A stretch of DNA of 60,137 nt, filler included, from Hausera hauseri (lineage: Eukaryota), in the NCBI GenBank assembly GCA_046269625.1. It is 11 parts of 11 records of this genome, joined end to end, with 100 filler letters (N's around TTAATTAATTAA, not from the genome) between each part and the next. Parts side by side here need not be neighbours in the genome. Positions count along the whole stretch, not along the records: positions 25,502 to 29,691 come from JBJURY010711104.1; 10 more parts are not named here. The stretch is one strand, 5' to 3'. How positions within the stretch are numbered: the first letter of the stretch is position 1; each line of letters opens with the position of its first letter. Of this stretch, positions 11,935 through 57,212 are shown piece after piece. The notes below the pieces were generated by a model. The model was not told where the DNA came from, ran no database searches, and saw nothing but the letters and a program-made list of their open reading frames with translations. The position numbers and the translations under genes were made by a program.

Positions 11935-14905
11935 GGCCGTACGTCCAACTCTTATTCCACCCCACCAATTTACGCTTATCATTGCATGATAAAGCGACTT
12001 TTGTATTGGTCACCATATACAGCTGGTGCTCAATCTATCGGATGATTGTTTGTGACAAGTCTTTCTTGTCCTCCTTTATAGACACGGCGATAATCACCGT
12101 GATTTATTTCCGTCTGGGCCAACTGAACTCCTTTGGCGTCCATTTTCGGTCCACAGTCAGTTAAAAGACTAACATTTTGGCTGTAGAAATACCCATTCCC
12201 TATACTGAACCCGACCTTCACTTTTATCCCTGAAGCAGCCGATTTTGTTTTTGATGGCATTTCTGTACAATGGATTATTCTGTGGGTAACTGGACGTATC
12301 CAGTAATACATCTGCCATCATTTGCTGTAGTAGTTGTTCGCGATTGACGTTTTCCAGTTCCAAGAAAAAAGTATCTGTGTCACCGGCTATTATATTGATT
12401 CATCCGCCGCCGCCGAACATTTGCCGGTAACGTGCCAAATCGCGATACTGCAGCTCATACATCCGCAACTTGCTCAGGTCCAATACCGCTTGTCCTATAT
12501 AATTTGGCCGGTCCAGTATGACTTCTTGCGTGTTTAAAGCACGGCAACTAACTAATCGGCAATGTGCATTGATCGCCTGAACTGTGCCTTACTCGTGTAC
12601 GTAACCAACCGCCTTTTGCTACTGCATTGTCGTACATTGAGCCGCTTTTTGAGCTGTTTTTTGTAGAGATAATTGTTTTTCAGTTTGTAATAGTCTTTTT
12701 CAAACTTCGTATAAGCTGAAGCTGGTTTTTCCGAATTCCGACTGATGTACGGCTTGAATATCGGAGCCTGTGAGAATCGGATTGTGCGATGTAACCTTGT
12801 GACGAGTACGCCCAACTGCATGTAAAATTGCAACAGACGCCAATGAACTATGTTATTTTGCTTGGGTTCATGCGTCATAAGCAGCTTTTCACCTTCGACA
12901 ACGGCGGACATTGGCTAACTGGTGCCACCCACAGTTCATCCAGAAAGTTATGCAGCTCATCTGGTACCACGAGATCGACTTCCATAATGTATTCGTTTCA
13001 GCTGTTTTCTGCTGTCGTGTATACTACCGACAGATTTTCCAGTATGTGTCCAGGTCCTGTTTGTCAACTACCCATTCGAATGACCCATACGGCAAGGGTT
13101 GTGAAAGCGCTCAGCCGTACAGGTTATTAATGTCGATATACAACAGTTATGTGGTATCATCACTGGTTACATGGTGCTTGTTGACATGTGTCATGCCGCC
13201 ACGAATACCAACATCAAACATTCGGTACATTTCCGGGTTTTGCAATAGCTCGATATCCCGATCTAATGAGATCAGAGCTGATGCCCAACTCATTCCGGAT
13301 ATTGAGTAAAAGTTAAGTGGCTCCAGCCTATCTTCTGCCAACGCTTTAGCTTGAAATGTCTGAAACACATTGGCTAACAGATACACGTACAATTTCAGAT
13401 ACTGAAGCAGGTACTTCAACAGGTTTCTGCAGCCGAACTCTGCCCAAAACGATTGTGCTTTGTGATTTTCTTCTTCTGTGATACCGGGCCATTGCGGTGG
13501 TAATGCGTCTTTCATCTGTAGCCGTTCGTACGATATCTCAAAGTCATACGGGAATATGCCTTTTGCTACGTGCAATATGTGTGGGGAACTGAGTCAATGT
13601 TAGCGAAACATCTGGCAAGGCATTTTCCAGTATTGCCAGAGATTCATTGAAAAATTGCAATGAATTGAGAAAGCGTACCTGGAACCGGTTTATACGAGCA
13701 GACAGTGACAGGTATTACTCTATCTTAGTCGGAATTACGAATAGTTTCCAGTTCGGAAATCTGTTTATTGACCATTTTAAAATATGGTGACAGTCACAAC
13801 CTCTGAAGTTATGAAAAATCACCGGTAGGAATAACCACACATGCCTTGTCAAATTACATGAATTACATGCGGCTCCGAGATATCGGCCGATAAAATTGTC
13901 GCGATCCGTACGACCCGTTCCTGTGCATCAAACGGTAATATTTTGTGGCACAGGTAACATTCATCTGTGACTGCAAACGTCAGGCGCTCATCTTCATCTG
14001 TCTACATCAAAGGTTTGTTGCCATTTGTACTGTACCATGATGAGATTTCCGTTTCTACTATTATTTCCAAGTGATGCAGGAAATCGTATATACAGTTCCA
14101 GTCATGAAAAACGTAATATTATGGTTGATCTGCGGCTTTTGTTGGAACAACCAACATAGCGACAGCGATTGGAACATGTTTTTGGTAATATGCGTTGTGC
14201 CGTGGTAAGATAGCTTTAATACCGGCATATACTAGATATACCGGATTGTCTGTTTTTGAGCAATCAGTGAACCTGAGTTCCCTTTTGACGGGCATGACAT
14301 ACATTGTGGTTTCTGACGAATTTTGTCTGAACAAAGTCATATATTTCTTCCATGTTGTTTCCGACCTGAATCCATGCAGACATACAGGACACCATATATA
14401 AAGTATACGCTTTTCGATGAACTGACCATGTTCTATGTTCAACAGTCTGTTCAAATTTGTCACGGCCACGTAATGGAATTTTCCGTCCTTTTTCTCTAAC
14501 AGCAATAATTTATTGGGCGTCCATTCGGGTTCCGACTTCTATAGATTACGTCCACATTAGGGTTCTTGTAAATTCCTTCGTCTCTCGGTATTTCTGCGAT
14601 TGTGTTGTACCAGAACACGTTAATTGATAGTGTCCGATTACGCTGTTCAAAAGTCAGAATGTTTTTCAATTTCATCGGCATCCAACATTAATCAAAGTCC
14701 TAACCGGAAAATACTGCCGATACCTATTTGGGGGATATGCATTGTCTATCCACTTGGTCATATTTTAATACGTCCAGAATGCTGTAAATGAAACAGTATT
14801 CGTCTTCAGTATTTTTTACATTCACTACCGCATAAGAGTGCTTTAGAGCTCTAGGTGTCGGTATGAATGTTCGCCCGTACAGGTAAATTATATCACTCGA
14901 CTTTG
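11935..14905 (-). pseudogene. Polinton/Maverick-type protein-primed family B DNA polymerase with endonuclease VII-like insert
   Basis: AVVNVKN..DEYCF, PVIFHNFRG, KGIFPY, GIRGG, LYIDINNLYG, EKDYYKLKNN, LDTSSYP..NPLY, KIGCF; C-x2-C...GAAC..CNL module. Confidence 0.9.
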
Positions 14906-16544: not shown

Positions 16545-17170
16545 NNNNNNNNNNNNNNNNNNNNNNNNNNNNNNNNNNNNNNNNNNNNTTAATTAATTAA
16601 NNNNNNNNNNNNNNNNNNNNNNNNNNNNNNNNNNNNNNNNNNNNTGAATAGGTTCACTTGCTTCAAACCATGCACATGGTTTGCTCCAATCCATATCGTA
16701 TACTCTAAGTGACTAAGTTTTGGATATTCTTTCGTCTTGCCGCATATTGTAGTTTTTCGATTAGGGTTATCGACCTTGTCTTTGGTATATACGAAGCGAT
16801 TAACGATAAGGCGAGGACTATTTGTACATACGATATTGGTCTAGTCACTATCGAGGACGTTTTTTCTTTGTTCGTATAGTCCAATTTTGCTTTTCCCGAA
16901 CGCAGATTATAGCGCTTACTTGGCCTTATTTCCGTTTTGACTACTCTGGATTGATATGACTTCCTCCTTGCCATTTTTGTTTATATAAACGGTGGCTGGT
17001 GTGGTTTTGGTAACTTCGTAAGGTTCTCTGCCTGTTTTGGTGCCTTTCTTTGCTACTGAGTAATGTACGTAAACCCAATTTCCTGGTTCTAGGTCATGTG
17101 GTTTAGCCTTCTTGTCATATTGCCTTTTATATTATTCTTGGTATTCTCTGGATAATTCCTTGGCTATTTC

Positions 17171-18508
17171 TCAACACTTTTGTAATTTCAATTGTAATAC
17201 TTCGACAAAATTTTGCTCCAAGTCTTCCGTTCTGGTTGTATATGGAATCAGTCCTAAATCTGTAGGTAGTACAGCTTCTCCACCGTACATCATGAAAAAC
17301 AGGGTAAATCCTGTTGTAGGATGTGATGTAGTATTAATGACAAATTGTGTACCTTCCAAGAAATCGTCCCAATCCTACTGGTTTTTCGCGACTACTGTTG
17401 ATAAGATTCGTATAACTGTCGCGTTCATTTGTTCAACTAGTCCGTTACATTGGGAATGATAAGCTGTTGTGGTTAGTTGCTAGATTTCGAAAATTTTGGT
17501 AATTTTGTCTAACAGTTCGCTTGAAAACTTTCTTCCTCGGTCTGTCAAAATTTTTTCAGGCGGCCAATATCTGCAAATAATTTTCTGGACTACTACTTCT
17601 GCCAGGGTCTCCGCCTTTGGGTCTATTAACGCTATAAACTCGACAAAATGAGTCAATTGGTCTACACAGGTCAAAATATATTTATTTCTTTTGTGAGACG
17701 TAGATAACGGTCCTACAATATCCATGGACATTGCTTGCATTGGTCTGTCTGGCACATTGATGAGTTTGAGCTCAGCGATGTAGTTTTTCACTTTTCTCTG
17801 TTTGGTTGCGCATACTTCACAAGCATTCACCCAATTTCTTACATCGATGTAAATGCTCGGCCAATAATATTTATTTAATATTCTTCCCAATGTCTTCTTC
17901 CACGACATGTGTCCGGCTAAATATAAGTCGTGTTCGGCTATTAACACTTCCACACGTAGCCCTTTTGGTATGACGACGAATTTTTGTCCCTTTCGTTCGT
18001 AGTACAACACATTTTCGTGATTAAAATCTCCTGCAACGCAATATTTGTGACCATGTCGTTGTAGGTATTTCCATAACTGATGACTTTTTGGTGTTTTGTT
18101 GGTATCAACGAACTCAACAATTTGTTGTATAACTTTGTCTTTTCTCTGTTCGACAGAAATCTTTAATGCCTTATCCAGTGTGAGAGTCCGTTGCCTCTCT
18201 ACTAAGTCTTCAAGGTAGGCTTTCCTCATTACCGTAACTGCGCTTGTTTTAGTTTTAAGTCTTGACAATGCATCGGCGTCGACATATTTATTTCCGGGCT
18301 TGTATTGGAATTCAATATTGTAACGTGAGATCTCCTCTATCCATCTGTTGAGTCTACAGGTCGGATTATTTGCTCTACCCTTCAAAGTCGTAACTGCCTT
18401 ATGATCAGTTACGATTACGATCTTTTGTCCATAGACGTACACGTTAAAATGTCGCAGGGCTTCCTTCACCGCTAACGTTTCCAACTCCGTTACAGAATAG
18501 TTCTTCAC
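17171..18508 (-). pseudogene. RNase H C-terminus and integrase
   Basis: TDHKAV, ADALSR, HD...GH...YYWP...CEVC, MDIVGPL, ILTDRG. Confidence 0.95.
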
Positions 18509-18576
18509 GGCTTTCTTTAAAGAGCGTCATCCATATGCGATCGGTTGTTCTAGCTCCTCGTCTTCTCGTTTCTGAG

Positions 18577-19471
18577 CTAATTCATACCCAATGCCTTACT
18601 GGCGTCTGTTTTGATTATGAACGGCAGGTTGAAGGCAGGATATCTTAAAACGGGTTCACCATTTAGAATTTTCTTCATTTCATTGAAGGCTTTCTGTTCA
18701 ACGTCGAACCATTTCCATTTGATCCCTTTTTTAAGCAAGCGGTACAAATGTGCGTTTATCTTTGAATTGTCTGGTACATAGGTAGCATAATACCCACATA
18801 ACTCCAATTAGTGTATTAATTACCTTTGATTCTGGGGTTTTATGCAGTCCGATATTTTATTTAGAAAGGATTTATCCGGCTTTGATCTTCCTTCTCCGAC
18901 TATATGTCCAAGATAAGACACAGCATTTTGAGCCCATTTGCATTTCTTAGGATTTAGTTTTAATCCAGCTTGCTCCAATCTCATGAGTGTACCCTCAATA
19001 TACTTTAAATGACCCTCTTCCGTTTTTGACACAATCATGACGTCATCTAGGTAAGCGAACGCGTGTTCTAGTCCCATTAGCATCTTGTTCATCATGCGGG
19101 TAAAGATGGCTGGTCCGGTCGTTATTAAATTCGTATATACCGTCGTGTGTCTCAAACGCGGTTTTGTAACAATCTTCCTCTATCTCTACTTGCCAATATC
19201 CGGATTGTAAATCAATTGTGGTGAACCATTTAGCTCCAGAAAATCTATCCAGAGCTTCCTTTACCGATGGTAATGGAAAGGAGTTTTTCATCATAAGCGT
19301 ATTTAACTCTCGATAGTCGATGCAAAATCGGTGCTTAGTGGTACTTTTCTTCTTAACCATGAGGATAAGTGAATACCAAGATCTATAGCTTGGTCTGATT
19401 ATATCGGCCTTCAGCATTCGTTCAACCTTTTTGGTTATCTCTGGCCTTAACGAGTGTGGATGGGGTACCAT
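18577..19471 (-). pseudogene. Reverse transcriptase / RNase H N-terminus
   Basis: IDLQSGYWQV, KTAF, AYLDDVMI, YLGH. Confidence 0.95.
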
Positions 19472-20330
19472 TTCGGCATCTTTTGCTCCTCTAAATCTAT
19501 TTCATCGTTGGACACAGGCTTTTTCTTAAGTTGGATCGCGAGTCTTAAGGCTTTAGCTCGGCCAATATCTTCGTCTTTAGCAATGACCGAACTATGACGA
19601 CAAAGTAATTCATAAAATCGACAGTATGATTCTGGTGAAAATTTAGTTTTAACGTGGGGTGGAAATTCAGTACATTTATAAGGTTTCTCTTCGATGGTAA
19701 CTGCCGGTACTCTATACGTGTGTCCCAAAGTAGTATTGGCATATAGTTTGATAGGGGTGGGTGCATTATTCGCTACCCTGATTGGTACGCGCCCTGCTGA
19801 TACTATCGTTAAAACATTACTGATTACGATGTTCGGATTAAGAGATTCCTTCGGCTCAAAATATACTGGCTGATCATCATCTTGACGTATCTGAGCATAT
19901 ATTAATATTTCGGTTCTGGGTGGTATGTTTTCATCCACGGGAAACCACACTTCTCCGAATTTTCTGTCTTTAGTGGTTTTAATTCCTTTTATTGGGCCAA
20001 GTTCTATCAATTTCCCTGCATTGAAATCTATCGCTATGTTGGGTAGTTGTCTCAATAGATCGCACCCCAATACTACATCATCCGTTAGTTTCTCCATTAT
20101 TGAAAATTCATGATAAAAAGATTGTCCCATAATACGAATTTCTGGTCTCCATCGGAATTTGCTTTTAGACGATTGATCGAAGGCTTCGACACTTCCTGGG
20201 TCTGTTGTGGGAGATGGATATAATTGTTTCCGTAGGAATTGCGGTATTGAATCATACTTTATCAGTGATATTCTGAATCCTGTATCTATCAGTGCATAAA
20301 CGTCCCAATTTTTGCGAAGGGCCTTCTTTC
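19447..20330 (-). pseudogene. Aspartic protease and PR-RT spacer domain
   Basis: YALIDTG near 20280-20300; VVLGCDLL. Confidence 0.85.
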
Positions 20331-20854
20331 GATTACCGTACCGTAATAACTTGGTGCTATTTGGGGTGTCGTATCGTGGACACTTTGTAGCCGTTGATGG
20401 TAACTTCGGTGGTTCCGACTGGCTGATCGATTAATTGCCTTAACTCTCCAATTGGGTATAGTTAGTTATTCATACCATTCGCGTTTTCTGTTTCTTGTTT
20501 TCTAACTGGTAGCTGGATTTCTTGGTTTCTGAAATGGTGTTTCGCGGCTTCCGGTAAATGTTCACTGCCTTTCGTTTGGTTTAGGTATTCTAGGTGAATA
20601 AATAATACCGTGATCGTCGAATGCTAAGCGACGATGTGGGGCAGACGTCCTTTCCATTTCGTGGATCTTACGCAATATCCCGTAGCGTTTTATTCCTTCG
20701 TAAGGATCCTCTAGACTAAACGGCTTCCGATAGATCCCTGTCTGAAACGAACTCATAGATTGTTTCTCACAGTCTTCATATATAAGTGCCGTTGGCAGCA
20801 GTACTGGTAATGGTAGTTTAATAGCAGAGTAGTTTTGTGCCTGTTCGACTTGGA

Positions 20855-20872
20855 GATAACGTCTCCTCCCTT
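20855..20872 (-). promoter_or_regulatory. Polypurine tract and probable LTR start after the glycoprotein gene
   Basis: AAGGGAGGAGA-CGTTAT, matching the PPT-TGT junctions at 27855, 40792 and 56294. Confidence 0.65.
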
Positions 20873-21017
20873 AGACTCGTCATCGTCATAGTTATTTCTT
20901 CGTGTCTTACTATTTATGAAGTTTTGTCTGTAGTTGAATATGCGTCTTTTACGTTTTCGATTATGGTATCCAACATGTCGCTCCACATTCGCTTTCCATA
21001 TATTCTCTTCATAAGCC

Positions 21018-22871
21018 TTAATGGGTCATAATATCTGTTAGAATCTTACACCAGAATCCTGTAAAAGTGAATATCTCGTATCCATTTATAATCTCTTGAA
21101 TTATTGCTTTGACCAGTTGAATCAAGAAATAAATTGCTAGGAATCCTGATGAGGCTTGTCCAAATATCAGGAATCTCCCCCAAATTTTATACAATATTTC
21201 TGTAGTTACTCTTCGGTAGTAGTTGACACCGAGCAATGATTCCCACTTCGCTTGATAACGCGAGTCCTCTAGTATTGTATGCATCACTCTGTTTAATTGA
21301 TGTATGCGCTGACGGGAGAAAGCAAGGAACTGTCTGAACGCCTGTACTTCCTTCGGTCGGGAAATCCCCTTTGCGGCGGTATCTTGAAATTTATCATCGG
21401 TTATTCCTTTTATTAAATTTTTTCCGGTTAATTTGGTCGGTGGCATAATTATTCCGCCGTTTGGTAAACTTACCCAATCGGTTTCACTACGCCTGAACAT
21501 CGGTTCGCATAGGGTGGACATGCGGTCTCTCAAAATTGTCGGCTGAGCAGAGTTTGCCAACAATATTCTAGTAATTGGTGTTACTAACCTTGGTACGTCT
21601 TGGTATATTACTGGAAGTTTCTGTATACACCTCTTCTCTTCCATATTAATAGGTACATCTTTCTTTTCACATTCGTAGGTCAGTAGGACTTCTCCGGTTA
21701 CCCGTCCGAAAATGCATTCTTTCAATGGAATTATTGGTGATGCTAATTCAGGATTAGCATATGTTAAAGCCAGTTTACTCCGCATAACTTCCAAGTCCAA
21801 TTTGCAGTCATTTGTTATCATTTTGTGATATAAATCGGCTATTCCTGCTTGTGCTTTGTAGCAGAAATAGTCGTCTCTGTTTTTCAAATAATCTTCAATT
21901 TGAATATCTTGAGTCTCGAGCTTAAACGTCCTGGCGTTTATCGCCGTCTTAGCTACAAAGGATGCTTCACAATTGGTGGAGTACATTATGATATCGCACC
22001 TCGTGAGTACATTTTTCTTCACAAATTTTAATCCATTAGTGTCAGAAATCAGTATTCTGGGTGTGGACTGTTCGGTTAAATATTCTCGTGTTTTAGAGTT
22101 AGTTTCCGTGCTATTTATGTATTGTTTCCCTGTCGTTTCATTAAACTTAAGTTCTCTAATTCTGATAAAATAGCAATCGGTCTTGGCTGAAAGTTCCCAA
22201 ATTACCACGGAGCTTTTGAAGGAGCAAGTATCGTCCTGAATGTGGCACTTCTGGTTTTCCGTGTGAAGCTTAGTAACGCTATGGAACATTACCTTTTGTA
22301 GGCGAATTTCAATTTCGTAAAAATCTACTACTACGATGTTAGACTTTAGCCCTTTTCCAGTATCGTATTCTGCGCCATTACAATGTCCGGTGTGCATATC
22401 TAGTCTTCCAGCTGCCACTTTATATACTCTGATTATCTTTTCTTGTTGCATTTCCAATTCCATACCATTTCATTTTAATCTTCCAGTCTCTCTAGCTTGC
22501 TTACAATGCTAACGTTCCAAGTTCATCGGAACTGGTGGGTTTGTTGGCTTGACTAGCGATGAATGCCCATGTACCAATCCGCAATGGAAAATACTGCGAG
22601 ATCGTCGCAACATACATTCTATTCCGTCTAATGTAACTAATTCGCGTTGTTGGTACAGCACGTAATTTTTCTCTTTTGTTTCTAGTTTATGTGGTCTCGC
22701 ATCTTCACACATTTCTAAGTCCATTAATGAGTATTTTTGGCCAAGTTTAAATTTGTCGCATTCGTACACTGTAACTGCACCCATTTGACTTATTAAAATC
22801 ATCACGGTTAAGAAGTTAATTAACCAGTTTGGCTCGTTTCCTCTATTATTTCCGGTTACGTTTCGTAACAA
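21018..22871 (-). pseudogene. Chuvirus-like (class III-type) envelope glycoprotein, retroelement env
   Basis: Signal peptide, then VYEC...YSL..LEMC...YQQ...IEC...IFHCG..HGHSS...G.C.G..Y...NIVV...C......C......W......C; C-terminal WGRFLIFGQASSGFLAIYFLIQLVKAII..IINGY hydrophobic region. Confidence 0.8.
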
Positions 22872-25401
22872 GTCTTCAAATCTATTATTGCCAAGAAGGG
22901 CCTATTTTGATGTTCTTCTTCTTTTTCAAATAATTTGGACCAGTTTACTTCTCGGGGCAATTTCCTGGCAGCCTTCCTTGCCAAGCTAATGGTCTTATTA
23001 AATTCGTTTTCTCGGACCCGATTGATTTTAACGGCCAAATATAGCAACACTTTTCTTAACTTCTCCATGGTGTTTTCTACCATAATCTTCTCGATTACCA
23101 CTGCATCGCTTAAGGTGCTTCTGGATAATTTACACCGAAAAATTTTCATGGCTTTGGCTGCATTAAATATAGCCTTCTCTTTCTCGTTTAGTATATCACC
23201 ACTGAGACTAGAGTGGTTTACTATACGTATCAATTTTTTCATGAGTTCATTCAGTTCTTCGTCATCTGCACTGAAGGTCGGTACGGAAATTTGCCTCAAT
23301 TCTCTGATTAAGTCCCCATTATAATCGATTTCTTCTCGTGTCTTTCGCGGCCTACCGACAGGATGCTTCTGTTTTGTTACAGTCGGTCTGGTATCAATGG
23401 TTGGTACTAGATTCTTATCATATTGTTCCTTGTCTTCATCTGTTTGCAAGTATTCGAAGTACATTGCTGCATCTCGAACTCCTACAATTCGTCCTACCCA
23501 CTGTTCAGTCTTTGCCTTTGGTGGCCTCTTCTTTTGTTTTGTCGGTGGGAATTGTTACTACTATCCGGTTTGCTTCGTCTGGAATAATTCCAACTTCTAT
23601 TAGTAGTTCCAGTTCGTCTAATATTCTTCCTCTAAAATGAAGTCTACAGTTCAGCTCACTTGTATGACCATTACTCCTTAATCACAGTGCTACATCCTTC
23701 ACAAGAGAACGTGTAGTAAACTCGTGCTTCTTCTGATCCATTCAGTCAAACGTTATTCTTACTTTAATCGTCTCTTCGGACCTTGTCTTTAAGAATTTAG
23801 CATATTCTTTGATTAAAAGTTTTGGTGCGGCACTATAAATCGTAACTTCGCTGGCTAATTTAGTTAGGGTGGGAACTAACCGCCTTAACTGATTTTCGGT
23901 AAGGTTTGCATTGATTAACTTAATTAGATCCTTTTCAGTTTGTGATGAGTCCAGAAGCATCTCCACACTAAATCTCTGATCTGGTGGACACGTCTCCGTT
24001 TCGTACAAGTGCACGGGAGTTTTCGGGTTTTCGGCGAATATTGATTTAGATACGCGTCCCATTTGTTTTCGATTTCGGGTAGTCCGAAATCAACCTCAGG
24101 AGTTTCTAACGGCCGGACTAAGTTCTCATCTTTTATTGATTCTCTTAGTTTCCGTAGTTTTTGTTGCATTATAACCATTTGTATGGTTCGGAAACAACGT
24201 CCATTTCCAGAGGTTTGGCGTAATACTGTTAGCAGCTGACATAATTCTTCGGCTGGTATAAATCCTTGTTCTTGATAATTAGTTAGCTCAGAAGCTACAT
24301 CTCTTTGCCATTTTTGCACAAATTGTGACTTCTCAGGCTTTTCTGCTTCTATAAGAGCATACTTATTTTTATACATTTCGAGTTCTTTAGTTAGTTCGTC
24401 TAATCTTACCACTCTCTGTTTGGTTTTAATGCAAGTTTCTTCAATTTGTCGTATCTGTGGCTACAATTATCTTATTTTCTCGTCACTAATTTCTGCTATT
24501 TCCACCATCAGCAGTGCTAATTCATGCATCTCATTAATAATTTTTGAGTCTGGGTCTATTTCATCAAGTAATCTTTTTACAAACTTGGCCTCTTCAAAAT
24601 TAAGACGGTGGTCGTTCCTTACTTTAGTCAGTTTGGTACCATACCTTTGGTCTGTTCCAGCCATCCTTTCTCAGGGGTGGTGTAAGAACGTCACTACTTC
24701 GAGGGTCGACTGATATTCTTGGCAAATGTCTAAAGTTCTGAGATCTCGAACCAATATCTCCTCAATAGGTTTGGCTGTTAGATGTTGGATTCCTTCTAAG
24801 CGGATATTTCTTAATCTTGGATAAAAGTCACTAGTTAAATTCCGTTTTTGTATAAAATTTGTTTCTTCTGTCATTTTATATATATATATATATCATCCAG
24901 CATCTTCATTTCTTGCTTCTTTTTTATAAAGTTTAATTTACGTAATGCATCGAATTGGGTCCGGACGTCAATCTCTACCTTCATCGTATTTAAATTTCGT
25001 GCGTCTTCTATTTGTTTCCTTACTGTAGGCTCGCTCTCTGGAAATTCTTTTTTGCGACTTTCTAGCAGTTTACTCAACCTCGTTATTACTTAGGACCACT
25101 CATTCAATTGGTTAGCGATTTCTGGTTTTGCCCATATTGCCTGGTCTAACGTTTTGTGAACGTCTTCTAGTTCACATCTGGACCTTTAATAAAATCAATG
25201 ACCTGACGGGCGTAGTTGAACTCATCTTTATACTCATCAAACTCGAGGATACAGGCCGTAATTATTTTTTGTGTTTCATCATTATTTGTTTGCATAATTC
25301 TATTTCTTAGACTGCATATTTGCAATCTTTTTTCGGTTTTAATTTTAATCCGATTTTCCAGACTTGTATATTGTTTTGTTGCAGTAGAAGCGATTTTTAT
25401 T
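22856..25401 (-). pseudogene. Fragmented large accessory ORF upstream of env, helical and charged, function unknown
   Basis: Series of adjacent or overlapping co-oriented ORF pieces (25077, 24874, 24664, 24412, 24062, 23464) running into the env signal peptide. Confidence 0.6.
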
Positions 25402-25501
25402 NNNNNNNNNNNNNNNNNNNNNNNNNNNNNNNNNNNNNNNNNNNNTTAATTAATTAANNNNNNNNNNNNNNNNNNNNNNNNNNNNNNNNNNNNNNNNNNN
25501 N

Positions 25502-27896
25502 TCCTCATCTATGTTGTTTCATATCCTTTGATAAGGAATATATGATATGGTATTGGACAGGATTGAAAACGAATGGTGACTGGAAATGGTCGGATGGATT
25601 AATAGGTCCAGAAGTAATAGTGAGATCACCAAAAGCAATAATAACCCCTACTAGGATAACAATGACCTCTACTATAAATGTAATGACTCAGAAATCGACT
25701 AGAGTTATGAACATAATTAGAGAATTAGACGTAACCGTACAGTCGACGCCACACTCTCTCATCATCACTGTGTCGAATTTAAGGAATACAAATATAAAAT
25801 TTGAGTGTTTCCTTTATAATAGGATGGTTAGTGAAGGAGTTTTAACTCCTGAAGAACCGACATCTGCATGTATGTTCCTAAAAGCCGATACAAACTATAA
25901 AGTTATCATAACAGAGCTAGATGATGAAGGAGGAAAATTACAAACAATCTCCCGTATAGAAAAAACTCTAAGACGGACAATAACAACCCCGAACATTATG
26001 CGTAAGATGACTACCCAAAAGCTTGAAGAAAATCCGAATAAATACCTTTGGATGATCATAGTACTATGTACTCTTTTAGTGTTATTAGTCGTACTTTTAC
26101 CTTTAATAATTTATTACTCAAAAATAAGACGACGACGTAAATTAAGAAAAACCCTAAATCAACTAAGACTTTTAAGAAAAGACTCTCAAGATGAGTCAAT
26201 AGGGGATATAAGTGCGCCTAATATCAAAATCCAACAACGGCAAAACTGTCCGTTAATAAAGGAACCTTCGGCTGAAAAACCGAATAATCCTCAATGGCAA
26301 GATTGTCCATTAACACTCCGTAGCGATGAGAATCGATTAATTAAACGACAAGAAAGTCGAACAATGAATATAATCGTAGGATATTGTACCAAAATCCAAG
26401 ATTGGTCCACTAACTTTTTCGTATCGTATCAGAATTATAAATCAAATTCATTTCGTATTCCTTATTTTGAATCTTTTTGGCTCACATACATCTATTTTTT
26501 TTAGTTCAGCAAGGATCAGAAATCGCGGAGAGACCAAAATCCTTTTACTATAATGTTTTAGACAATCTCAACCAAACCGTCAACAAGGATTATATATATT
26601 ACGGTAAAGCTACATTGATCCCTAATAATCTAAAAGGGCACCTTCTTCAACAAAGGGTGGCCCTGATTATAAAAATGTCCTCAGCAGCGACAAAACTATC
26701 GGACTTGATCGAAGTTTCTAATCGAACAATATCAATTTATATATCCGTAGCAAAAAGCGGATTACAAATTAAAAGCAGAACTCATATTAATGAAATCACA
26801 GATACTTTAGAAGTTCCTAAATTGACTACGATTAGATTGGACAAAAGGTTTTACAAAAATGCTACTTTGGTACTCCGACCGTATGGTGGACCACCCCCAG
26901 TTATTTACATAGAAGCTATTCACAGAGACATCATTCCCCAACCAGAATACGAGAAACCTGTCTATCCTAAAAACCTGCCTCATCTCAATCAACTGACACA
27001 AGGAATATCCTTTGTGAGATTGCCAACTCTTCTGGAAACAAAGATGGTAGTTTTGGCTTTCAATTCAGCCTATATACTAACCCCCCTCAGAAATAAAGAA
27101 AAAACTTTGGTAGAAATAACTATAACTGATATGGAAGGAAATATAATCCTGGACGAATTAGTTACACCTCGCGATCGAGTGGACAATTTCGATAGCCAAA
27201 TAACTGGCCTCAAAGAAATAGATCTTATTTGAAAAACGGATGCATACCAAATTAGAGCCCTCATCCGACAAAAAACTCTACGACAAAATAATTATTGGTA
27301 TGGACATCTATAATTCCAATTTACATCTTGACCTCTTCAATATTAATGCAATCCGTGGAATTAGAGACCTCCTCTATCACGATGAAATTAATCCAGAAGG
27401 AAAACTTAGTCAAAAACAAATTCTTATGAAATTCAACGATATTGTCTATCCCCATCGTACTAAAGACAAGGCTTCCACAATGTTAAATATCTATCGTTCT
27501 ATTAACGAATACCGAATTGATAATCAAATCCTTCAGAACTCACCAATTCCGACAAAAGAAACTCAAATAGAACCTGTCCAAGATTCTATATTAATCCCAG
27601 AACCAATGGAAACAAACCAAGAATTACCTTCCCAAGTTACTAGTAATCAAGAATCTGATATAAATCAATCTACCGAATCTATTGTTATAGATCTTACCAA
27701 GTCAAACAAAAGAAAGAAACAAACACAAGAAACAATAACTCTCAAGAAAAAAATAATGAGGAAAGGAGAATGGGGACGGATAGAATCCGCCAGTTATCGG
27801 TACGATAACGGAATTCTAAGAACCTACCCTTTGATGCTGAGGACAGCATCATCCAAGGAGGGAGGTGTTGGACCAGTTGAGCCGGCTGTTAATTAA
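25502..27896 (+). pseudogene. Retroelement 3' accessory polyprotein: lectin-like motif, FN3-like domain, TM, cytoplasmic domain, inactive DEDDh exonuclease fold
   Basis: YWTGL...WKWSDG; L.ADTNYKVII; TM YLWMIIVLCTLLVLLVVLLPLIIYY + KIRRRRK; EITITDMEGNIILDELVTPRDRVDNFDSQITGL...IIIG...IRD; ends in PPT/LTR. Confidence 0.75.
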
Positions 27897-28569
27897 ATTT
27901 GAGTCAGTCGAGCCGGCTGTTAATTAAATGAATTGACTAATTGAGTCTCCTGAAAATAAATTAACTGTCTCCCGATAATTCAATCGAGAATTTAATTATT
28001 GATGGACTACTGAATTAATTTTCGCCAGATATTTGTTACCTTTTTATTTTATTTTCTTGTAAATTGATGATCAACGTTTTTATTATTGGTGAATTTTTCT
28101 TTGTGTGTTCATAATTAGAAATTGCTATAAATACATGAACATTGATGATTGAAACACAATCTTTCTTCTGACTTAATCAATGTATTTTGATGGATGTAAG
28201 TGTTTTGTTATATGTTTTTATGGTTTCATTGTATTTAGCTCTTAATTAGATATTTATTTTTGAGTAATTGTTTTGTTTTCTATAGTAAGGTATAATTAAT
28301 TCTTAAATTTTAACCCACTTTGGTATTCCGGTCCCGTAATTGACCGGATGTCTAACGTTTTCTAAGTAAGGGGTAAACCGTCAGTGTCCCTCCTGAACGG
28401 TACTCACCTTAAGGTCAAATAAAGCCTAAAGCAACCCCACAGGTTGCTTATAAGAATAATTAATATCAGGTCTAGTGGGAAGGAGAAACCCTAGACTTTA
28501 TTTAGTACTAAGTAAAGAGTATAAGTTTAGGGTCGTAAGACCAATAAATCTTTGCCTATAAACTTATCA
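27866..28569 (+). repeat. 3' LTR
   Basis: PPT AAGGAGGGAGG at 27855-27865, TG...CA termini, TATA-like at ~28125, structured 3' end. Confidence 0.8.
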
Positions 28570-28582
28570 AACCTTTTTTAAT

Positions 28583-29253
28583 TGTGATATAGCACAAGAC
28601 TGTTTAGTCTAGTGCAGATTTATTTTCACTTGATTTTTCTTGCACGTTTTGGAAATTTATCCGTTTTATTTTATGTTATTGGATTTACATTTGCATTTTT
28701 CTTCTTAAATTGCATTACTGAACAAGTATAAATAGCAGAATCTTCCATTTATACCTAACCTAACATTTTCTGGAAATGACGTATTTGTATGATTATTGTA
28801 AGTATTGTTACATTGATTTATATCTTTTATTCTTAAAGATATCTGTTTATTGATTCATATTGTTTCTTTTAAAGGCAATAAAGCATTGATATTTAACGTC
28901 TTGGTTTGATTTAGTTGGATATTTAGTATTTTATTCTTAAATCTTACGTTGATAATAACATTAAGTATTGTAATAAATTAAATAATAAATTCTTGGGTCC
29001 CTTTTTGGTATACCGGACAGTAAAATCCGGTTGTTAAAATCAACTAAATAAGGGGGAGAATCGTCAGTGTCCCCTGACGAAACTCACACCGTAAATCTAA
29101 ATAAATTAAGTAAAGTTATCGGCAACCCACAGGTTGCTATAGACTGATATATAATAATAAGGTCTGAAGAAAGGAGGACCTTCAGACAGTAAAGAATAGA
29201 GTATAAGTTTAAGGTCATAAGACCAATTTTTCTTTACACCTATAAACTTATCA
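28583..29253 (+). repeat. Second, related solo LTR in tandem
   Basis: 3' ~250 bp is homologous to 28318-28569 and ends in the identical CCTATAAACTTATCA. Confidence 0.75.
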
Positions 29254-29615
29254 AATGCAACACCACACAAAGCAAACCCAGTTCAAGATACGTTGAAAAC
29301 ACTTACTGGGAGTTGCTACCCCACCCGCCGTATTTATCAGACTTGGCTCCTTCTGATTACAATTTGTTTTCATCGATAGGACACGCACTTGCTGAACAGC
29401 ATTTCAATACTTATGAAGAAGTCGAAAATGGGTCGATGGATGGTTTTCTGCAAAGGACGAACGGTTTTTTGGCATGGTATCCACATACTGCCAGAATGAT
29501 GAGGAAAATGTGTGAATAACAATGGACAATACTTTGAATAAAATATTTTGTATTATTCTGTTAAAATAAAGGTGTTATTTTCATTAAAAAACGATGGTTT
29601 GATATTTGTATTTTT
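29254..29615 (+). mobile_element. Mariner transposase 3' remnant
   Basis: LPHPPYLSDLAPSDYNLF (YSPDLAPxD motif). Confidence 0.92.
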
Positions 29616-29791
29616 GTAAATCAATTGTATTCAATCTTTAAGTAATCATATCATTAAAACAAACTATGCTTTAGTTTAATGGGATTAAGAGNNNNNNNNN
29701 NNNNNNNNNNNNNNNNNNNNNNNNNNNNNNNNNNNTTAATTAATTAANNNNNNNNNNNNNNNNNNNNNNNNNNNNNNNNNNNNNNNNNNNN

Positions 29792-38662: not shown

Positions 38663-40811
38663 AATGGGACTCATTCCAAGGAAGACAAAGTCGGTTTAGC
38701 ACATTTGTATTTAACAGTAGGGATTTCCACGATTACAAGCTGAAATTTCGCATAGCCGCTTTACCCGCGAAACTAATGGTTGAAGTAACCGAAGAGGAAA
38801 CAACGACCACTTCATTGCCGCCATTAGAATTCAGACAAAGGCCCACTGAAGAAGAACAAGACGCGCACCTACACTCATTTAGACTAGTGAAAAATGACAG
38901 AAATATTAGGATTATCGCGATAAATTATGGGGAAGGAGACGAAGGAAATTATATTCCAATTGAAATATCTATACGAGAAATAAACGGGGCCGAAGTCTAT
39001 TCGAAAATCATTAACCCAAGAAAGAAAGTAGAAAAAACCTATGCAGAAGTAATCGGAATAAAAAGAGAACAGTTAATCCACGGCAAGGATTCCAGATTAG
39101 TGCAAGAGGAAGTAGCACATTGCCTATACGGATACGTCATAGTGGGGTATCAAGTAGAAAGAATGATAGAAAAATTAAACATACCAGCAACTCAAATAGC
39201 CGGAATGAGAGATATAGAGACCCACCCAACTGTGATTGAACAAATGGAAATCAAGGTCAAAGAGTTGAAGGGTCATCTACCGCCGACCGTGAAAGGCCGA
39301 TTTAAATTAATGGTAGAAGCAATGACTGGAGGACACATTAAGATAAGCCGACTGCTGACCGCTAGTCAATTCTCCTAATATCTAATGGACATAAATGCAG
39401 GATTAAAGTAGGAATATGAGTGGACCCCCAGTAATCCTGGACAAAACCTACGAAGTCTCCCCAAACTCGAAGGAATCAGTACACGATATAGAAAACATTT
39501 CCCTCCATATTCCCGCCAAAAAATGTTGATATCACGCCGAAGTGGAATTATCAGATAACCATCCAAGGATTAAAATCCGAAAGAACGGAAGAAAAACTGC
39601 CAACAGACGAGAAGCCTAGTACTAGTTTCGCAACTTAGACGGCCGAAAATCGTGGCGAGTTCAAGGTACCAGAAGTTCCCAAAAAACGCATTAAAAAGGA
39701 AGAAAAGACCAAAGGAAATGAAATCGAAAAAACGATAAAAAAAACTTCCGTCTTCGATTATCTATTCAAGAAAAAGAGTAAAGAAAGAGAGAGGGACCAA
39801 GAACAGGATTGTGAATACAAAAGTAAGAAGCCAACCTGCAAAATGGATGGACTAAGTAACCAAGAGGAACACATAACTAATCAACAAAGAACAAAGCAAG
39901 CTAAAGAAACAAGGGGCGAATAACGGAAATAAATATATTAAGGAAGAAAAACTCCACGGACGATGTACATTACGCCACTACGGAGAACTACCCTAGAATG
40001 CTGGTAACAACAGAATACTATAGTCAACAAAGGATTAAAGAGGCCATGTTTTTCGTCAAATTTATGCCCGCAAGGCAAGTATACGAGAACACTTATGTCT
40101 GGGAAAATCCTAAAGTCGGAAAATACGTTGCTGCTGTATTTTAGTCAAAAATAAATGGCAAACTTATAGTTCCCTAAACAAATCCGTAAAGTTGTTACTC
40201 AAGAAACAATATCAAAAATACCGATCGACTGGTGAAATTCCCGATTTAAATCGAGATACTATCAGCGATTGGACCCTAGTACCCGTGTGATGCGATCCCA
40301 AGAAGAGTTCAATAAATCCAAAACAGAAGAGAATATATGCCTATTTATACCAGGATGAAGAAGGATTGATAATAGAACCTATCGAGATTATGATAAGAGT
40401 TGCTTGAACCACGAAAATTTGGAGAAAGGAGAAAAAGAATGCCCAGTGTGCGAAGCTAACCTCAAACAAGGCTATGTGATTTTGGACAATTCGAACTGTC
40501 GACATAAATATTGTCGAGATTGTTTAGAAAAGTGGATATTAGATAACGGCAAAACTACATGTCCAGTCTGTAGGGCTGAAGCCACACACCTGAAATATTT
40601 TTCAAATGGGATTTATACTAGGGTAGTTAGAATAAAACCATACCACAGTTACGAATTGGAAATAAGTCCCAGAGAAAACCAAGCCAGTACAAGCTCCGAA
40701 CTCAGTTTAAGACAACGGATGAGCTTATTACGATCATCGCGTTTAGGCGTCACCTCTCCTGACACAATGGACACATCCGAGGGTGCCGCTCAAGGAGGAG
40801 AAATGTTATAA
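38663..40811 (+). pseudogene. Retroelement 3' accessory polyprotein: inactive DEDDh exonuclease fold, charged linker, unknown domain, C3HC4 RING
   Basis: PIEISIREINGAEVYSKIINPRKKV......IGI...L..G.....V...V...L.GYVIVG...RD; CPVC-x15-CRHKYCRDC-x12-CPVC; ends in PPT. Confidence 0.8.
40404..40811 (+). CDS. C3HC4 RING finger domain (putative E3 ligase), polyprotein C-terminus
   Basis: All eight Zn ligands and the conserved Trp present. Confidence 0.88.
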   Translation: MNHENLEKGEKECPVCEANLKQGYVILDNSNCRHKYCRDCLEKWILDNGKTTCPVCRAEATHLKYFSNGIYTRVVRIKPYHSYELEISPRENQASTSSELSLRQRMSLLRSSRLGVTSPDTMDTSEGAAQGGEML

Positions 40812-40882
40812 ATAGAGTAGACAATAGACCAGTGTACATATTATTACTGAAGTTAGCTGTAGTCAGATAATAAAAGTATTGA
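40804..40882 (+). repeat. Start of 3' LTR (interrupted)
   Basis: PPT AAGGAGGAGAAA at 40792-40803, then TGTTATA. Confidence 0.7.
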
Positions 40883-41615
40883 TGTTATAGTTGGGGTGGT
40901 CCTTACCTTCTCCCACTATAACAATATTAATTTCAATTTAGATTCGCTCTATGAGCAGGTTAGGATTACTCGTTCTCGAGTAATCTGATTGTGCCTTAAG
41001 ATTTTAAAAAGAAATTAGTTTTTGATGCCGGTACTGCGTGCAATAAAACTGCGTGTCTTAAGTTAGATTCTCTCAACCTAGCTATAGAATTTAAGTAAGA
41101 TTTTACCCTTAGTGTAGTGCAAATCGTCCTTAAGGGACGATGGAAAACTATATGGGATTTTAAATAACGATGAAATAACAAATCACCTTTTATTTGATGT
41201 ACTGACAATTCGATACAACAGTGTTTCTCAAGGAGAATAATTCACGATAATAATGTCAATCGATTTCCAAATAAGCGTAAGTCGGTTCACGGAATGGCGT
41301 ATTGCTTCTTTAAATTTCTACGTTGTACGACTCTAATTCGTACTCTCAATCGTTCTACTCTCACTGTTTTTCAATCTTCTTATATACTATTCTGACCGGA
41401 TTCCGATTTCTAATTATTTACAATTGTTTTACCTTATTTCTACATTCTAATTAAATTATCCAATTTTAACCAATTCACATTTAATAATCAATTTAATCAA
41501 TTCATAAACAGAGGTTCCAAATTATGTACACAATTACGCAAACGGATATTTATCCAATTAATTTTCTGTACGGCCATGATTCGACTTCCGTACTGTTTAT
41601 TGACCTTTTATTACA
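40883..41615 (-). repeat. Inverted LTR related to 56306-57093
   Basis: Reverse complement shares GATTACTCGAGAACGAGTAATCCTAACCTGCTCA, CGAATTAGAGTCG and the terminal hairpin; TGT...ACA termini. Confidence 0.85.
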
Positions 41616-41619
41616 CTAA

Positions 41620-44210: not shown

Positions 44211-44242
44211 TGACGACAATTTCTTTGATCCCCCATCGTTTT

Positions 44243-44938
44243 TGTTGAACGACCTCCATATATTGACTGGCTATTGATTTTAATGAGTCCAATTCCATAT
44301 GTTGAATTGCAGTAATAATTAAACGCCATGTTAAATGACTATTGTTCTTAATATGACTTCGATTATATTGCTCCGAATTATAATGTGGTTTATGACTATT
44401 ATATTTTTGTCTGTATTTTGAGACGACATATGTCAATATTATTCTTCTTGTGACGGTAGTAAAACACTAAATAATGTGATCATTTGGGAATAAATTGAAC
44501 AATTTTTCTTGATTCGTGTCGTTGCCTATATGCTCCATGTCAAGTTGTAAGATTTATTATTTGAATTATATAATGTATTTTAATATTGTTTTTTAATTCA
44601 TTGTATATTTATAATTTTAAATTAAGTAATTTTCGCAAAGCGCATTCAGTAATTAGCACAAGTCCCGACACACGGTCGGTCCGACGCCCCTTCAAGTAAC
44701 TAAGTAAGAGGAACATTAATTAAACCTTAGGAACTTACATAACATATATCATTGTCCTCTACACATTACCCATAGGTTAGGTATAGCCAAGATGACATAT
44801 CTATCTGAATCCTACGGAAGCACAATAAATCTTGTTCACTTTACTACTTCTCATACGTATTAATAAGCCTCTCCTATTGGAATTAGTGAGGATTGAACAC
44901 TTTACTTGCAATTTTTGTTTCATATTACCAATCAACAT
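44243..44938 (+). repeat. Probable LTR
   Basis: TGTTGA...TCAACA termini directly after the accessory ORF; no clear PPT. Confidence 0.5.
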
Positions 44939-45919: not shown

Positions 45920-46166
45920 TGTTTTTGTGCGAATGGGCATTTGATGACATTGAGCTTAGCAGATAGCTCTGACCGTTTGAGGTGCAATTGCCGAGAGTGT
46001 CATTCTGAAATAGGTTTGTGGAAGGATACATGGCTGGGGAAAGAGAAACTTCCCTTTCATAAAATTATCTACTTCATTTATTGGTGGTCTCGTGAAAAGA
46101 TCAGTGTCAAATTTTGTGAATTGGAACAAGAAATTGGACAAAATTCTTTCGTCGATTGGAGTAATT
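45920..46166 (+). mobile_element. Merlin (IS1595/ISXO2-like) transposase N-terminal remnant
   Basis: C..GH.M.L...C.C..C...I...KDTW.....L....I..IYWWS...CELE..I.....VDW.N. Confidence 0.8.
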
Positions 46167-57093: not shown

Positions 57094-57212
57094 TAAGCAA
57101 CGATTTGAAACTAAAAAATTGGCCAACAAACTTATTTTACAGAATGTTAAATATACAAGTATGATAGTTATCAACTTTCTTTATATGTTCTACACTGATA
57201 GACCAAACGTAC

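Follow-up and report, generated by a model that had tools for sequence, protein, structure and literature searches.

Genomic context of the exonuclease-like domain

The window, that is, the whole stretch of 60,137 nucleotides of Hausera hauseri DNA that was analysed, is composed of 11 contigs joined by N-spacers. A profile search of the whole window identified a DEDDh exonuclease-like domain in exactly three copies, which occupy two of the 11 contigs: copy 1 lies on the contig at 25502–29691, and copies 2 and 3 on the contig at 38663–46166. All exonuclease-domain motifs, like the other features given below, are on the plus strand. Pairwise identity among the three domain copies is 25–32%, and copy-to-copy tblastn matches (E 7e-8 to 2e-10) place their resemblance above chance. 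Because the copies are on separate contigs or elements, an origin as tandemly repeated genes of a single chromosome was rejected. In run X1, 31–36 distinct contigs map on single positions inside the copy 2 ORF, which indicates a multi-copy family; none of the 40 differences listed among related contigs, out of 1511 differing places, falls on a catalytic codon, a share too small to serve as a test of the acids in other copies.

Two lesions interrupt the copy 1 domain (27041–27500), namely a stop at 27230 and, near 27270, a frameshift. Upstream of it is the 3′ part of a membrane-protein ORF (25503–26504), which is open at the contig start and features a hydrophobic segment near 26040–26120 followed by a basic stretch. 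Pfam returned sub-threshold, membrane-type matches only for this ORF, and by its placement it would represent an env-position gene. The N-terminal region of the copy-1 accessory ORF (26579–27040) is in frame with the exonuclease-like domain. A 14-residue motif within this region (26600–26641) recurs before copy 3 at 43121–43162, and the segment 25788–25892 of the membrane-protein ORF is homologous to 42736–42840, also before copy 3, copies 1 and 3 thus having an upstream membrane gene in common. Neither Pfam, NCBIfam, PDB nor the ESM Atlas gave a family, structure or Atlas match for the region upstream of the domain, and the upstream parts showed no significant similarity to one another in pairwise BLASTP. 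An oxygenase-like barrel was considered for this region and found no support in the same four resources. The tail of the copy-1 ORF (27501–27896) comprises a low-complexity linker, a basic stretch and a short C-terminal motif; it resembles the tails of the other copies by eye only and runs into the LTR start. A polypurine tract is located at 27855–27865, with a TG at 27866 that we infer to be the start of the 3′ LTR.

The copy 2 ORF (38665–39378) is open from the contig start and contains 237 codons without a stop, ending at 39376, so that the domain (38902–39330) is uninterrupted. It is followed by a decayed stretch (39379–40425) corresponding to a charged linker with several stops and frame changes, and by a C3HC4 RING-finger ORF (40359–40811; RING at approximately 40437–40574) that matched Pfam zf-RING_2 above the cut-off (E 1.7e-9). 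This ORF ends in a polypurine tract (40792–40803) with a TG at 40804. A second RING ORF, from a related subfamily (55732–56307), is cut at its contig start, carries a polypurine tract at 56294–56305 and is 64% identical to 40404–40805; pN is 0.22 versus a pS of 0.76 for the pair, and the block 40231–40425 is homologous to 55732–55930. The copy 2 domain and the RING were presumably once part of a single ancestral ORF, a fusion that is broken here. No RING was found before the ORF end in copies 1 and 3.

The frame of the copy 3 domain (43558–44004) contains stops at 43972, 43999 and 44023 and ends at 44206. What is left of a membrane-protein ORF, the start of which resembles a signal peptide, lies upstream (41777–42990, end approximate), and a pattern scan identified an integrase C-terminal-end-like motif (41651–41680) upstream of this cassette. 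We take the motif to resemble the C-terminal end of Ty3/gypsy integrase. The pattern has two matches in the window, the other being located just downstream of a Pfam-confirmed integrase ORF on contig 1, and the motif may be regarded as a weak Ty3/gypsy sign. No polypurine tract was found behind copy 3. No reverse transcriptase was identified on either copy-bearing contig, both of which are cut short; the reverse transcriptase and integrase matches of the window lie on other contigs. The LTR evidence consists of the polypurine tracts with TG at 27855–27866 and 40792–40804; paired LTRs and LTR 3′ ends were not identified. The domain occupies the last ORF ahead of a polypurine tract, likely within LTR retrotransposons, which we infer to be of the Ty3/gypsy type.

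Similarity to DEDDh nucleases

A profile of the three copies gave five matches in the PDB at E ≤ 1 and all five are DEDDh nucleases, namely ISG20L2, PolC, ISG20, SDN1 and DnaQ (E 7e-8 to 6e-3, with ISG20L2 the best at 7e-8). The alignments span strand 1 to the ExoII helix and are nearly gapless, and the same five nucleases topped further profile searches. Exuperantia and Maelstrom were absent among the matches of this profile at E ≤ 1. Single copies alone remained sub-threshold, with no Pfam match above noise for any of them. The best NCBIfam match for copies 2 and 3 was a 3′–5′ exonuclease or PolC model, and a DnaQ-type model ranked second for the N-terminal half of copy 1, all far below the cut-off. 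The ten best family-bearing matches in the ESM Atlas all belong to one clan. Judged by profile homology, the domain is a member of the DEDDh/DnaQ-like exonuclease superfamily.

The top ESM Atlas match was an arenavirus nucleoprotein (0.91, with 131 of 256 features in common). A viral origin suggested by this match was rejected, the match being read instead as fold-level likeness.

Structure models built from a single sequence and from a four-row alignment (pLDDT 36 and 45, respectively) feature three N-terminal strands followed by helices, and these poor models gave no fold match at E ≤ 0.001. With the first model, DEDD nucleases occupied five of the top eight Foldseek rows, none of them significant, and a wide VIA search peaked at a Z of 3.2 with no DEDD protein listed; fold searches with the second model also gave no significant match. 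The C-terminal tails had no Pfam match, with no SAM-like subdomain identified, and their 3D models were poor. Word-indexed protein searches for outside relatives confirmed none of 17 candidates for copy 3 at near lengths, none of 354 for copy 2 at longer lengths and none of 3342 for the four-row alignment; none of 3 pattern matches in viral contigs and none of 189 in metagenome contigs were confirmed, and the phage collection gave none. These blanks do not equate to absence, since the searches depend on words in common or are made up largely of prokaryotic sequences.

Replacement of the metal-binding residues

The ExoI aspartate is replaced by alanine in all three copies (27056, 38917 and 43573), encoded by GCT, GCG and GCC, respectively. 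The ExoI glutamate is replaced by asparagine in copies 1 and 2 and by lysine in copy 3 (27062, 38923 and 43579), the Asp-x-Glu of ExoI thus being absent from every copy. The alanine sits on the catalytic aspartate in four of the five PDB structures (ISG20L2, PolC, SDN1 and DnaQ), only four having alignments that reach ExoI. At ExoII, the position of the aspartate, six residues after the glycine, is occupied by serine, methionine and threonine (27315, 39163 and 43819). This PDB-anchored alignment confirmed the claim of the first-pass annotation that the catalytic residues of ExoI and ExoII are missing in the three copies, and the acids at both motifs were found replaced in the alignment to ISG20-type nucleases that it had proposed. 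The ExoI sequences that it reported, VVLAFNS, IIAINYG and IVAVKLA, are present at 27047 (rather than 27043), 38911 and 43567, although, relative to the 7-mer of copy 1, those of copies 2 and 3 are shifted by one residue. The ExoII motifs start at 27291 (IIGMDIYNS), 39139 (IVGYQVERM) and 43795 (VIGADVINT). The GIRD motif, described as retained across copies, is found in copies 1 and 3 (27357 and 43861), whereas copy 2 reads GMRD (39202).

The ExoIII aspartate site was placed by the usual motif spacing and copy-to-copy alignment, beyond the PDB alignments, and corresponds to lysine in copy 1 (27468), arginine in copy 2 (39298) and the stop at 43972 in copy 3. Copy 1 has a histidine at the canonical spacing (27453) and an aspartate one residue before the site (His-x3-Asp). 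Because no PDB alignment reaches this motif and copy 1 carries this histidine and nearby aspartate, the loss of ExoIII appears less certain than that of ExoI and ExoII.

Shifting the ExoI register by two residues did not rescue the motif, these positions also being non-acidic (Asn/Ala, Asn/Gly and Lys/Ala), and WYGHL in the first frame of copy 1 was ruled out as ExoII since it lies past the frameshift. Copy 2 carries glutamates at Gly+4 and Gly+8, which flank the ExoII site at a distance of two residues. In copies 1 and 3, the aspartate at Gly+2 aligns with another aspartate of ISG20, one that is non-catalytic.

The polar residues invariant in all three copies are the strand-2 glutamate, the arginine of PR, the arginine and aspartate of GIRD/GMRD and a histidine four residues later; the MAFFT alignment shows a histidine before the last helix in each copy. 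The strand-2 glutamate aligns with a non-catalytic glutamate of PolC and DnaQ, and IRD is a structural motif of REXO4/ISG20L2-type proteins. The position of ISG20 Arg53, which contacts the 2′-OH, is aspartate, tyrosine and aspartate in copies 1, 2 and 3; it is not kept, and canonical substrate binding is therefore not preserved. The domain is near neutral overall, with K+R versus D+E counts of 17/20, 20/20 and 18/14 in copies 1, 2 and 3.

Ancestral loss of catalysis and selection on the fold

At the four acidic sites, 7, 10 and 7 of the 12 nucleotides in copies 1, 2 and 3 are changed from the canonical codons. Stop counts in the copies fit approximately 10% decay or less, and the simulated probability that all four acids are lost in all three copies is 1.7e-13 at 5% decay, 1.9e-9 at 10% and 4.5e-6 at 20%. 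Post-insertion decay cannot explain the missing acids, because this probability is about 2e-9 or less at 5–10% decay. Catalysis was likely lost once, in the common ancestor of the three copies.

Across 291 aligned codon pairs, identity at codon positions 1, 2 and 3 is 0.45, 0.62 and 0.31, compared with 0.27 by chance, the values at positions 1 and 2 being inflated by the anchoring of codon blocks on the protein alignment. Different codons encode 49 of 80 identical residue pairs, and 14 of 97 columns are invariant. In all three copy pairs pN is lower than pS (0.43–0.55 versus 0.62–0.81), with the smallest gap between copies 1 and 2 (0.55 versus 0.62); this comparison covers three copies with saturated dS and gives no reliable dN/dS. 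Third positions are close to chance and residues are kept, which therefore argues that the fold was under selection after catalysis was lost. Neutral evolution of the domain, the outcome that the first-pass annotation had set against its own proposal, appears unlikely from the residues kept at saturated third positions and from the lower pN in every pair. Its proposal of a selected pseudonuclease is supported by the shared alanine with its three codons, by the 7, 10 and 7 changes alongside few lesions, and by a third-position identity barely above chance. We consider it very probable, judging from these sequence comparisons, that the domain is non-catalytic and selected.

Proposed function and alternatives

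The reading that we favour, and to which we give about an even chance, is that the domain binds RNA without cutting it, as a module of an accessory protein, in a probable LTR retrotransposon lineage where catalysis was likely lost once. An ancestral element would have taken up a host nuclease gene of the REXO/ISG20 type, which became part of the 3′ accessory ORF, and the metal pocket would have been refilled with alanine, asparagine or lysine, a small or hydrophobic residue, and lysine or arginine, with the strand-2 glutamate kept. Once folded, the domain would hold RNA and leave it undegraded, the most plausible ligand being the transcript of the element itself. In the subfamily with a RING, proteins on the held RNA would thereby be reached by a ubiquitin ligase. 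Protection of element RNA and a decoy role towards host nucleases, both put forward in the first-pass annotation, would be candidate roles; the domains have no net positive charge. RNA as the ligand is suggested by analogy, and takes up about half of the confidence that we place in a selected, non-catalytic domain.

A tentative alternative, appreciably less probable, is that the ligand is a protein, the selected pseudonuclease mimicking or dimerising with a host DEDDh nuclease or its partner; in the RING subfamily it would act as substrate adaptor for a ubiquitin ligase that the element encodes against a host restriction factor. The same loss and selection data fit this alternative, as do the neutral net charge, the loss of the 2′-OH-binding arginine, and the RING downstream of copy 2, which is above the Pfam cut-off and under purifying selection. 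On the host side, PML joins a dead DEDDh domain to ubiquitin–proteasome degradation of L1 ORF1p, as described in the cited excerpt (PMC10123124). However, the domain is kept without a RING in copies 1 and 3, and the invariant arginines and histidine would also suit nucleic acid. Less likely again is a counter-defence factor, with the dead module, joined in one branch by the RING, recognising RNA-bound host restriction or silencing proteins and marking them for degradation.

We think it improbable that the domain is still a nuclease with a non-canonical active site rebuilt from the invariant glutamate, aspartate, histidine and arginine. The polar residues shared by all three copies, together with the histidine before the last helix, could furnish such a site, but the strand-2 glutamate matches the non-catalytic one of PolC and DnaQ and the IRD motif is a structural one. 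For Maelstrom, a switch of active site has been put forward (PMC2628886, PMC7968707). The cysteine ligands of the Maelstrom ECHC site are not seen around the late histidine of the present domain.

The suggestion of the first-pass annotation that the domain acts as a decoy for piRNA factors, in the manner of EXD1 or Maelstrom, found no support and appears very unlikely. Both proteins derive from the DEDD fold, lack activity and take part in piRNA biogenesis (PMC5408684), and the pocket substitutions parallel those of Maelstrom; the sequence affinity, however, is to ISG20L2, PolC, ISG20, SDN1 and DnaQ, and not to Exuperantia or Maelstrom, and the ECHC motif is not found. If the host is a parasitic flatworm, it would have no Piwi pathway, Piwi, HEN1, Zuc and Mut7 being reported in the cited excerpt as missing there (PMC8191739). 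Weakest and strongly disfavoured is the view that young copies of the element have an active exonuclease, of which the three copies are decayed relics. The breaks within the domain of copies 1 and 3, the decayed state of all three elements and the intact catalytic residues of the DEDDy exonucleases in rotifer LTR elements (PMC5408684) fit this view. Against it, decay of about 10% or less does not account for four acids lost three times over (P ≤ 2e-9, and 4.5e-6 at 20%), two or three changes are needed at most sites, one alanine is written in three codons and copy 2 runs through 237 codons without a stop.

Comparison with known systems

The REXO-type DEDDh exoribonucleases ISG20L2, ISG20 and SDN1 (PDB 7yw5, 1wlj and 5z9x) and the exonuclease domains of PolC and DnaQ (2p1j and 8h18) are the best sequence matches of the domain, which differs from all of them in having the metal-binding Asp, Glu and Asp replaced. 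Host DEDDh genes are single-copy enzymes, whereas the present domain is mobile cargo.

The bdelloid rotifer LTR retrotransposons Juno and Vesta carry a DEDDy exonuclease ORF3 that is shared with Athena/Terminon, according to the cited excerpts (PMC5408684, PMC6431247). These elements resemble the present ones in having a DnaQ-fold 3′–5′ exonuclease gene as an extra ORF. By its description there, ORF3 is set apart as RNase D-like DEDDy with intact catalytic residues (DEED). In contrast, the present domain is DEDDh-like, as its ISG20L2, SDN1 and PolC matches suggest, lacks the ExoI and ExoII acids and follows a separate membrane-protein gene, preceding a RING finger in one subfamily. The giant planarian gypsy elements Burro/GYPSM1 also carry RING and other ubiquitin-related accessory domains; in Burro, however, the cargo lies within a huge ORF1 polyprotein rather than a 3′ ORF, and the cited passages name no DEDD domain (PMC6431247). 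In the literature searched, with subscription papers and Repbase-type reports mostly outside its scope, no description of a retrotransposon-encoded DEDDh pseudonuclease was found.

The MAEL domain of metazoan Maelstrom shares with the present domain the DEDD fold, an asparagine at the ExoI glutamate, a conserved strand-2 glutamate and, as provisionally placed here, an arginine at the last aspartate. In the Bombyx protein, N124 and R306 are located in the pocket and are hydrogen-bonded with the strand-2 E137, and this nuclease-dead domain binds single-stranded RNA without a clear basic surface, as far as the cited portion describes (PMC4408791). Unlike the present domain, Bombyx Maelstrom keeps the first aspartate. 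Maelstrom also contains an HMG box and an ECHC site that binds zinc, and it acts for the host in transposon silencing. The present domain has the strand-2 glutamate and the late histidine without the ECHC cysteines, and gave no Maelstrom structure match.

Comparable with the proposed role are the catalytically dead, nucleic-acid-binding DEDD-fold modules of Exuperantia and of human PML, whose PXL domain, a DEDDh pseudo-exonuclease, has G-rich RNA and DNA as ligands; both are host proteins, and the authors link a SAM-like subdomain to RNA preference, in the excerpt cited (PMC13659232). PML is a TRIM/RBCC protein, so that here too a RING and a dead DEDDh domain occur together, but it restricts retroelements, as reported in the part of that study cited (PMC10123124).

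Exonuclease cargo and pseudonucleases are already known separately, and the present domain would be a dead variant of the former. In the excerpts cited, the dead DEDD-fold proteins Maelstrom, EXD1, Exuperantia and PML (PXL) all belong to hosts, three of the four being tied to transposon control, and the retrotransposon-borne DEDD genes keep their catalytic residues. If elements, too, keep a dead version under selection, the fold would be shown to be useful to a retrotransposon without cutting, and this domain is a small candidate for a means by which LTR elements shield their RNA or oppose the defences of the host. Should the counter-defence reading be true, the domain would mirror host PML and would be the transposon equivalent of the accessory proteins of retroviruses.

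Window composition

The window (60,137 bases) comprised 11 short contigs of 4.2–8.8 kb with N-spacers between them, and its GC content ranged from 30 to 44% in 2-kb bins. The ten spacers (e.g., 25402–25501) were identical 100-base blocks in which 44 N on either side flank a 12-base linker with stops in all frames; because they separate unrelated contigs, neighbourhood across them has no meaning. Mobile-element fragments were abundant, including gypsy-type RT, RNase H and integrase (Pfam), and further remnants comprised a BEL/Pao DUF5641 end, DNA polymerase B fragments and a Monjiviricetes-type fusion gene. The latter (21021–22901, minus strand; E 3.7e-39) encodes a fusion glycoprotein in a gypsy-type element of contig 16645–25401, where protease-RT-RNase H-integrase follow it in the same orientation; this env-before-pol order resembles that described for Burro elements. 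The DNA polymerase B fragments, of the protein-primed type (12555–13593, minus strand; 51431–51920, plus strand), are mutually related, lie on different contigs and are by inference Polinton-like. Two long open frames had no Pfam match (47157–48197, plus strand, 346 codons; 54349–55110, minus strand, 253 codons). On 38663–46166 we mapped 8,490 records from the contigs of one public run, the majority less than 95% alike, which indicates dispersed repeat families; their likely source is an animal genome.

Identification of three DEDDh-like domains

A profile scan of the window identified exactly three copies of the exonuclease-like domain; contig 25502–29691 carries copy 1, and contig 38663–46166 the other two. 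All the motifs named in the first-pass annotation were found, the first starting at 27047 rather than 27043. Identity among the copies was 25, 32 and 29% over 97 gap-free aligned codons, and none passed the Pfam or NCBIfam cut-offs alone. A four-row profile searched against the PDB gave five matches at E ≤ 1, all of them DEDDh nucleases: ISG20L2 (E 7e-8), PolC exonuclease (1.6e-6), ISG20 (2.3e-5), SDN1 (1.8e-4) and DnaQ (5.8e-3). The best ten family-bearing matches in the ESM Atlas all fell in the same clan as these enzymes. Predicted structures of the domain had pLDDT values of 36 and 45, and fold searches with these models returned no significant match; because structure prediction was uninformative, our assignment of the domain to the DEDDh fold family is based on sequence. 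No relatives beyond the Hausera hauseri genome were found in word-indexed protein searches, viral and metagenome contigs or a phage collection.

Active site composition

Four of the five matched PDB structures align through ExoI, and in each of these alignments the catalytic Asp position is Ala in all three copies. The ExoI Glu position is occupied by Asn, Asn and Lys in copies 1, 2 and 3, respectively. For copies 2 and 3, the heptamers earlier read as ExoI were one residue off this register. Shifting the ExoI register by two residues did not rescue the acids, the residues there being non-acidic too.

The ExoII Asp position (Gly+6) is Ser, Met and Thr in copies 1, 2 and 3. Copies 1 and 3 feature an Asp at Gly+2, aligning with another ISG20 Asp that we take to be non-catalytic, and copy 2 has a Glu two residues before and two after the ExoII site. 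ExoIII lay beyond the reach of every PDB alignment and was placed by the usual motif spacing and a MAFFT alignment, according to which its Asp position is Lys, Arg and a stop codon in copies 1, 2 and 3. Because copy 1 retains a canonically spaced His, with an Asp just one residue ahead of the expected site, loss of ExoIII is less certain. Two-metal catalysis by DEDD nucleases depends on both ExoI acids and on the Asp of ExoII; with these absent, such catalysis is not expected. The first-pass claim that the catalytic residues are missing is borne out at ExoI and ExoII, the placement of ExoIII being less certain.

Probable ancestral loss and selection

The copies have suffered damage: copy 1 is interrupted at 27230 by a stop and around 27270 by a frameshift, and three in-frame stops fall within the 230 codons of copy 3, whereas no stop occurs in the 237 codons of copy 2. 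Simulated stop counts correspond to a decay level of ~10% or less. Under a uniform substitution model without a CpG effect, the simulated probability of all four acids being gone in all three copies was 1.7e-13 at 5% decay, 1.9e-9 at 10% and 4.5e-6 at 20%, which argues against decay and makes it a highly improbable explanation. We conclude that the observation is real. The acidic-site codons differ from the canonical ones by 7, 10 and 7 of 12 nucleotides in copies 1, 2 and 3, and the ExoI Ala codons are GCT, GCG and GCC. The simplest reading is a single loss predating the split of the three subfamilies.

With only three sequences, protein-guided codon blocks and saturated dS, identity at codon positions 1, 2 and 3 was 0.45, 0.62 and 0.31 (291 codon pairs; chance at position 3, 0.27). 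With Met and Trp excluded, 80 residue pairs are identical, 49 of them encoded by differing codons, and the alignment contains 14 invariant columns out of 97. pN was below pS in all three copy pairs, with a narrow margin for copy 1 versus copy 2; comparing the RING ORF downstream of copy 2 with the related ORF at 55732–56307 gave pN 0.22 and pS 0.76. The retained residues, near-chance third-position identity and pN below pS agree with the earlier description of the domain as selected, and it was probably functional in active elements.

Element context

The copy 1 ORF extends into a polypurine tract plus TG (27855–27866). Downstream of copy 2 come, in order, a charged region that has decayed, a RING of the C3HC4 type (Pfam E 1.7e-9) and a polypurine tract plus TG (40792–40804); we infer a DEDD-RING fusion across several breaks. 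Homologous membrane-protein and N-terminal segments precede both copy 1 and copy 3, and an integrase-end-like motif (41651) lies ahead of the copy 3 cassette. No polypurine tract was found behind copy 3, nor any RT on contigs 25502–29691 and 38663–46166. The arrangement is consistent with a Ty3/gypsy-type element in which pol is followed by a membrane gene, an accessory ORF and the 3' LTR.

Part of the decayed sequence separating copy 2 from the RING (40000–40140) looked chromodomain-like by eye and had no Pfam match at E ≤ 5. The C-terminal tails of all subfamilies seemingly share a short motif after a basic stretch (27762–27845, 44128–44205, 40315–40398 and 55822–55905; by eye, without statistics). 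The start of the membrane ORF before copy 1 (25503–25640) contains Trp-rich motifs reminiscent of a C-type lectin domain, with no Pfam match. A very high-copy 280-base repeat (40882–41163 and 56813–57094; 77% identical, mutually inverted) occurs in each of the two RING-bearing elements, a short distance past the polypurine tract. Behind the copy 1 tract, a 210-base direct repeat (28362–28571 and 29044–29255; 71% identity) is followed near 29300–29516 by what we take, from a motif, to be a mariner-type transposase fragment.

Proposed role of the domain

The reading we favour, at about even odds, is that the domain is a non-catalytic RNA-binding module, by analogy with Maelstrom. In its pocket, Asn/Lys and Lys/Arg occupy the ExoI Glu and last Asp sites, and the inactive domain would bind RNA as its Bombyx Maelstrom counterpart does. 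In Bombyx Maelstrom, Asn replaces the ExoI Glu and Arg the last Asp, both hydrogen-bonding a Glu of strand 2; although inactive and devoid of a clear basic surface, that domain binds ssRNA (PMC4408791). The strand-2 Glu is invariant in all three copies here. Against RNA binding, the net charge of the domains is neutral and the position of ISG20 Arg53, presumably an RNA contact, is not retained.

A protein-binding adaptor or decoy, linked to the RING in one subfamily, is a less likely alternative, and a rebuilt active site is unlikely. A piRNA decoy is more doubtful still, because the domain has no ECHC motif (the Maelstrom zinc site) and parasitic flatworms are described as having no piRNA pathway (PMC8191739), the latter point applying only if the host is such a worm.

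Comparison with known systems

Dead DEDD folds have been described as host proteins, namely Maelstrom, EXD1, Exuperantia and PML-PXL (PMC5408684, PMC10123124, PMC13659232, PMC4408791), and no description of a retrotransposon-encoded DEDDh pseudonuclease was found in the literature searched. Bdelloid rotifer LTR retrotransposons carry a DEDD exonuclease, ORF3, which is reported as DEDDy with its residues intact (PMC5408684), whereas the present domain is DEDDh-like, lacks the ExoI and ExoII acids and is not ORF3. It shares the DEDDh fold family with active REXO/ISG20 enzymes but lacks their ExoI and ExoII catalytic residues, and its predicted active site sets it apart from them. Its pocket substitutions (Asn/Lys and Lys/Arg) parallel those reported for Bombyx Maelstrom, and the strand-2 Glu is kept in both; lacking the ECHC motif, the domain is nevertheless distinct from Maelstrom.
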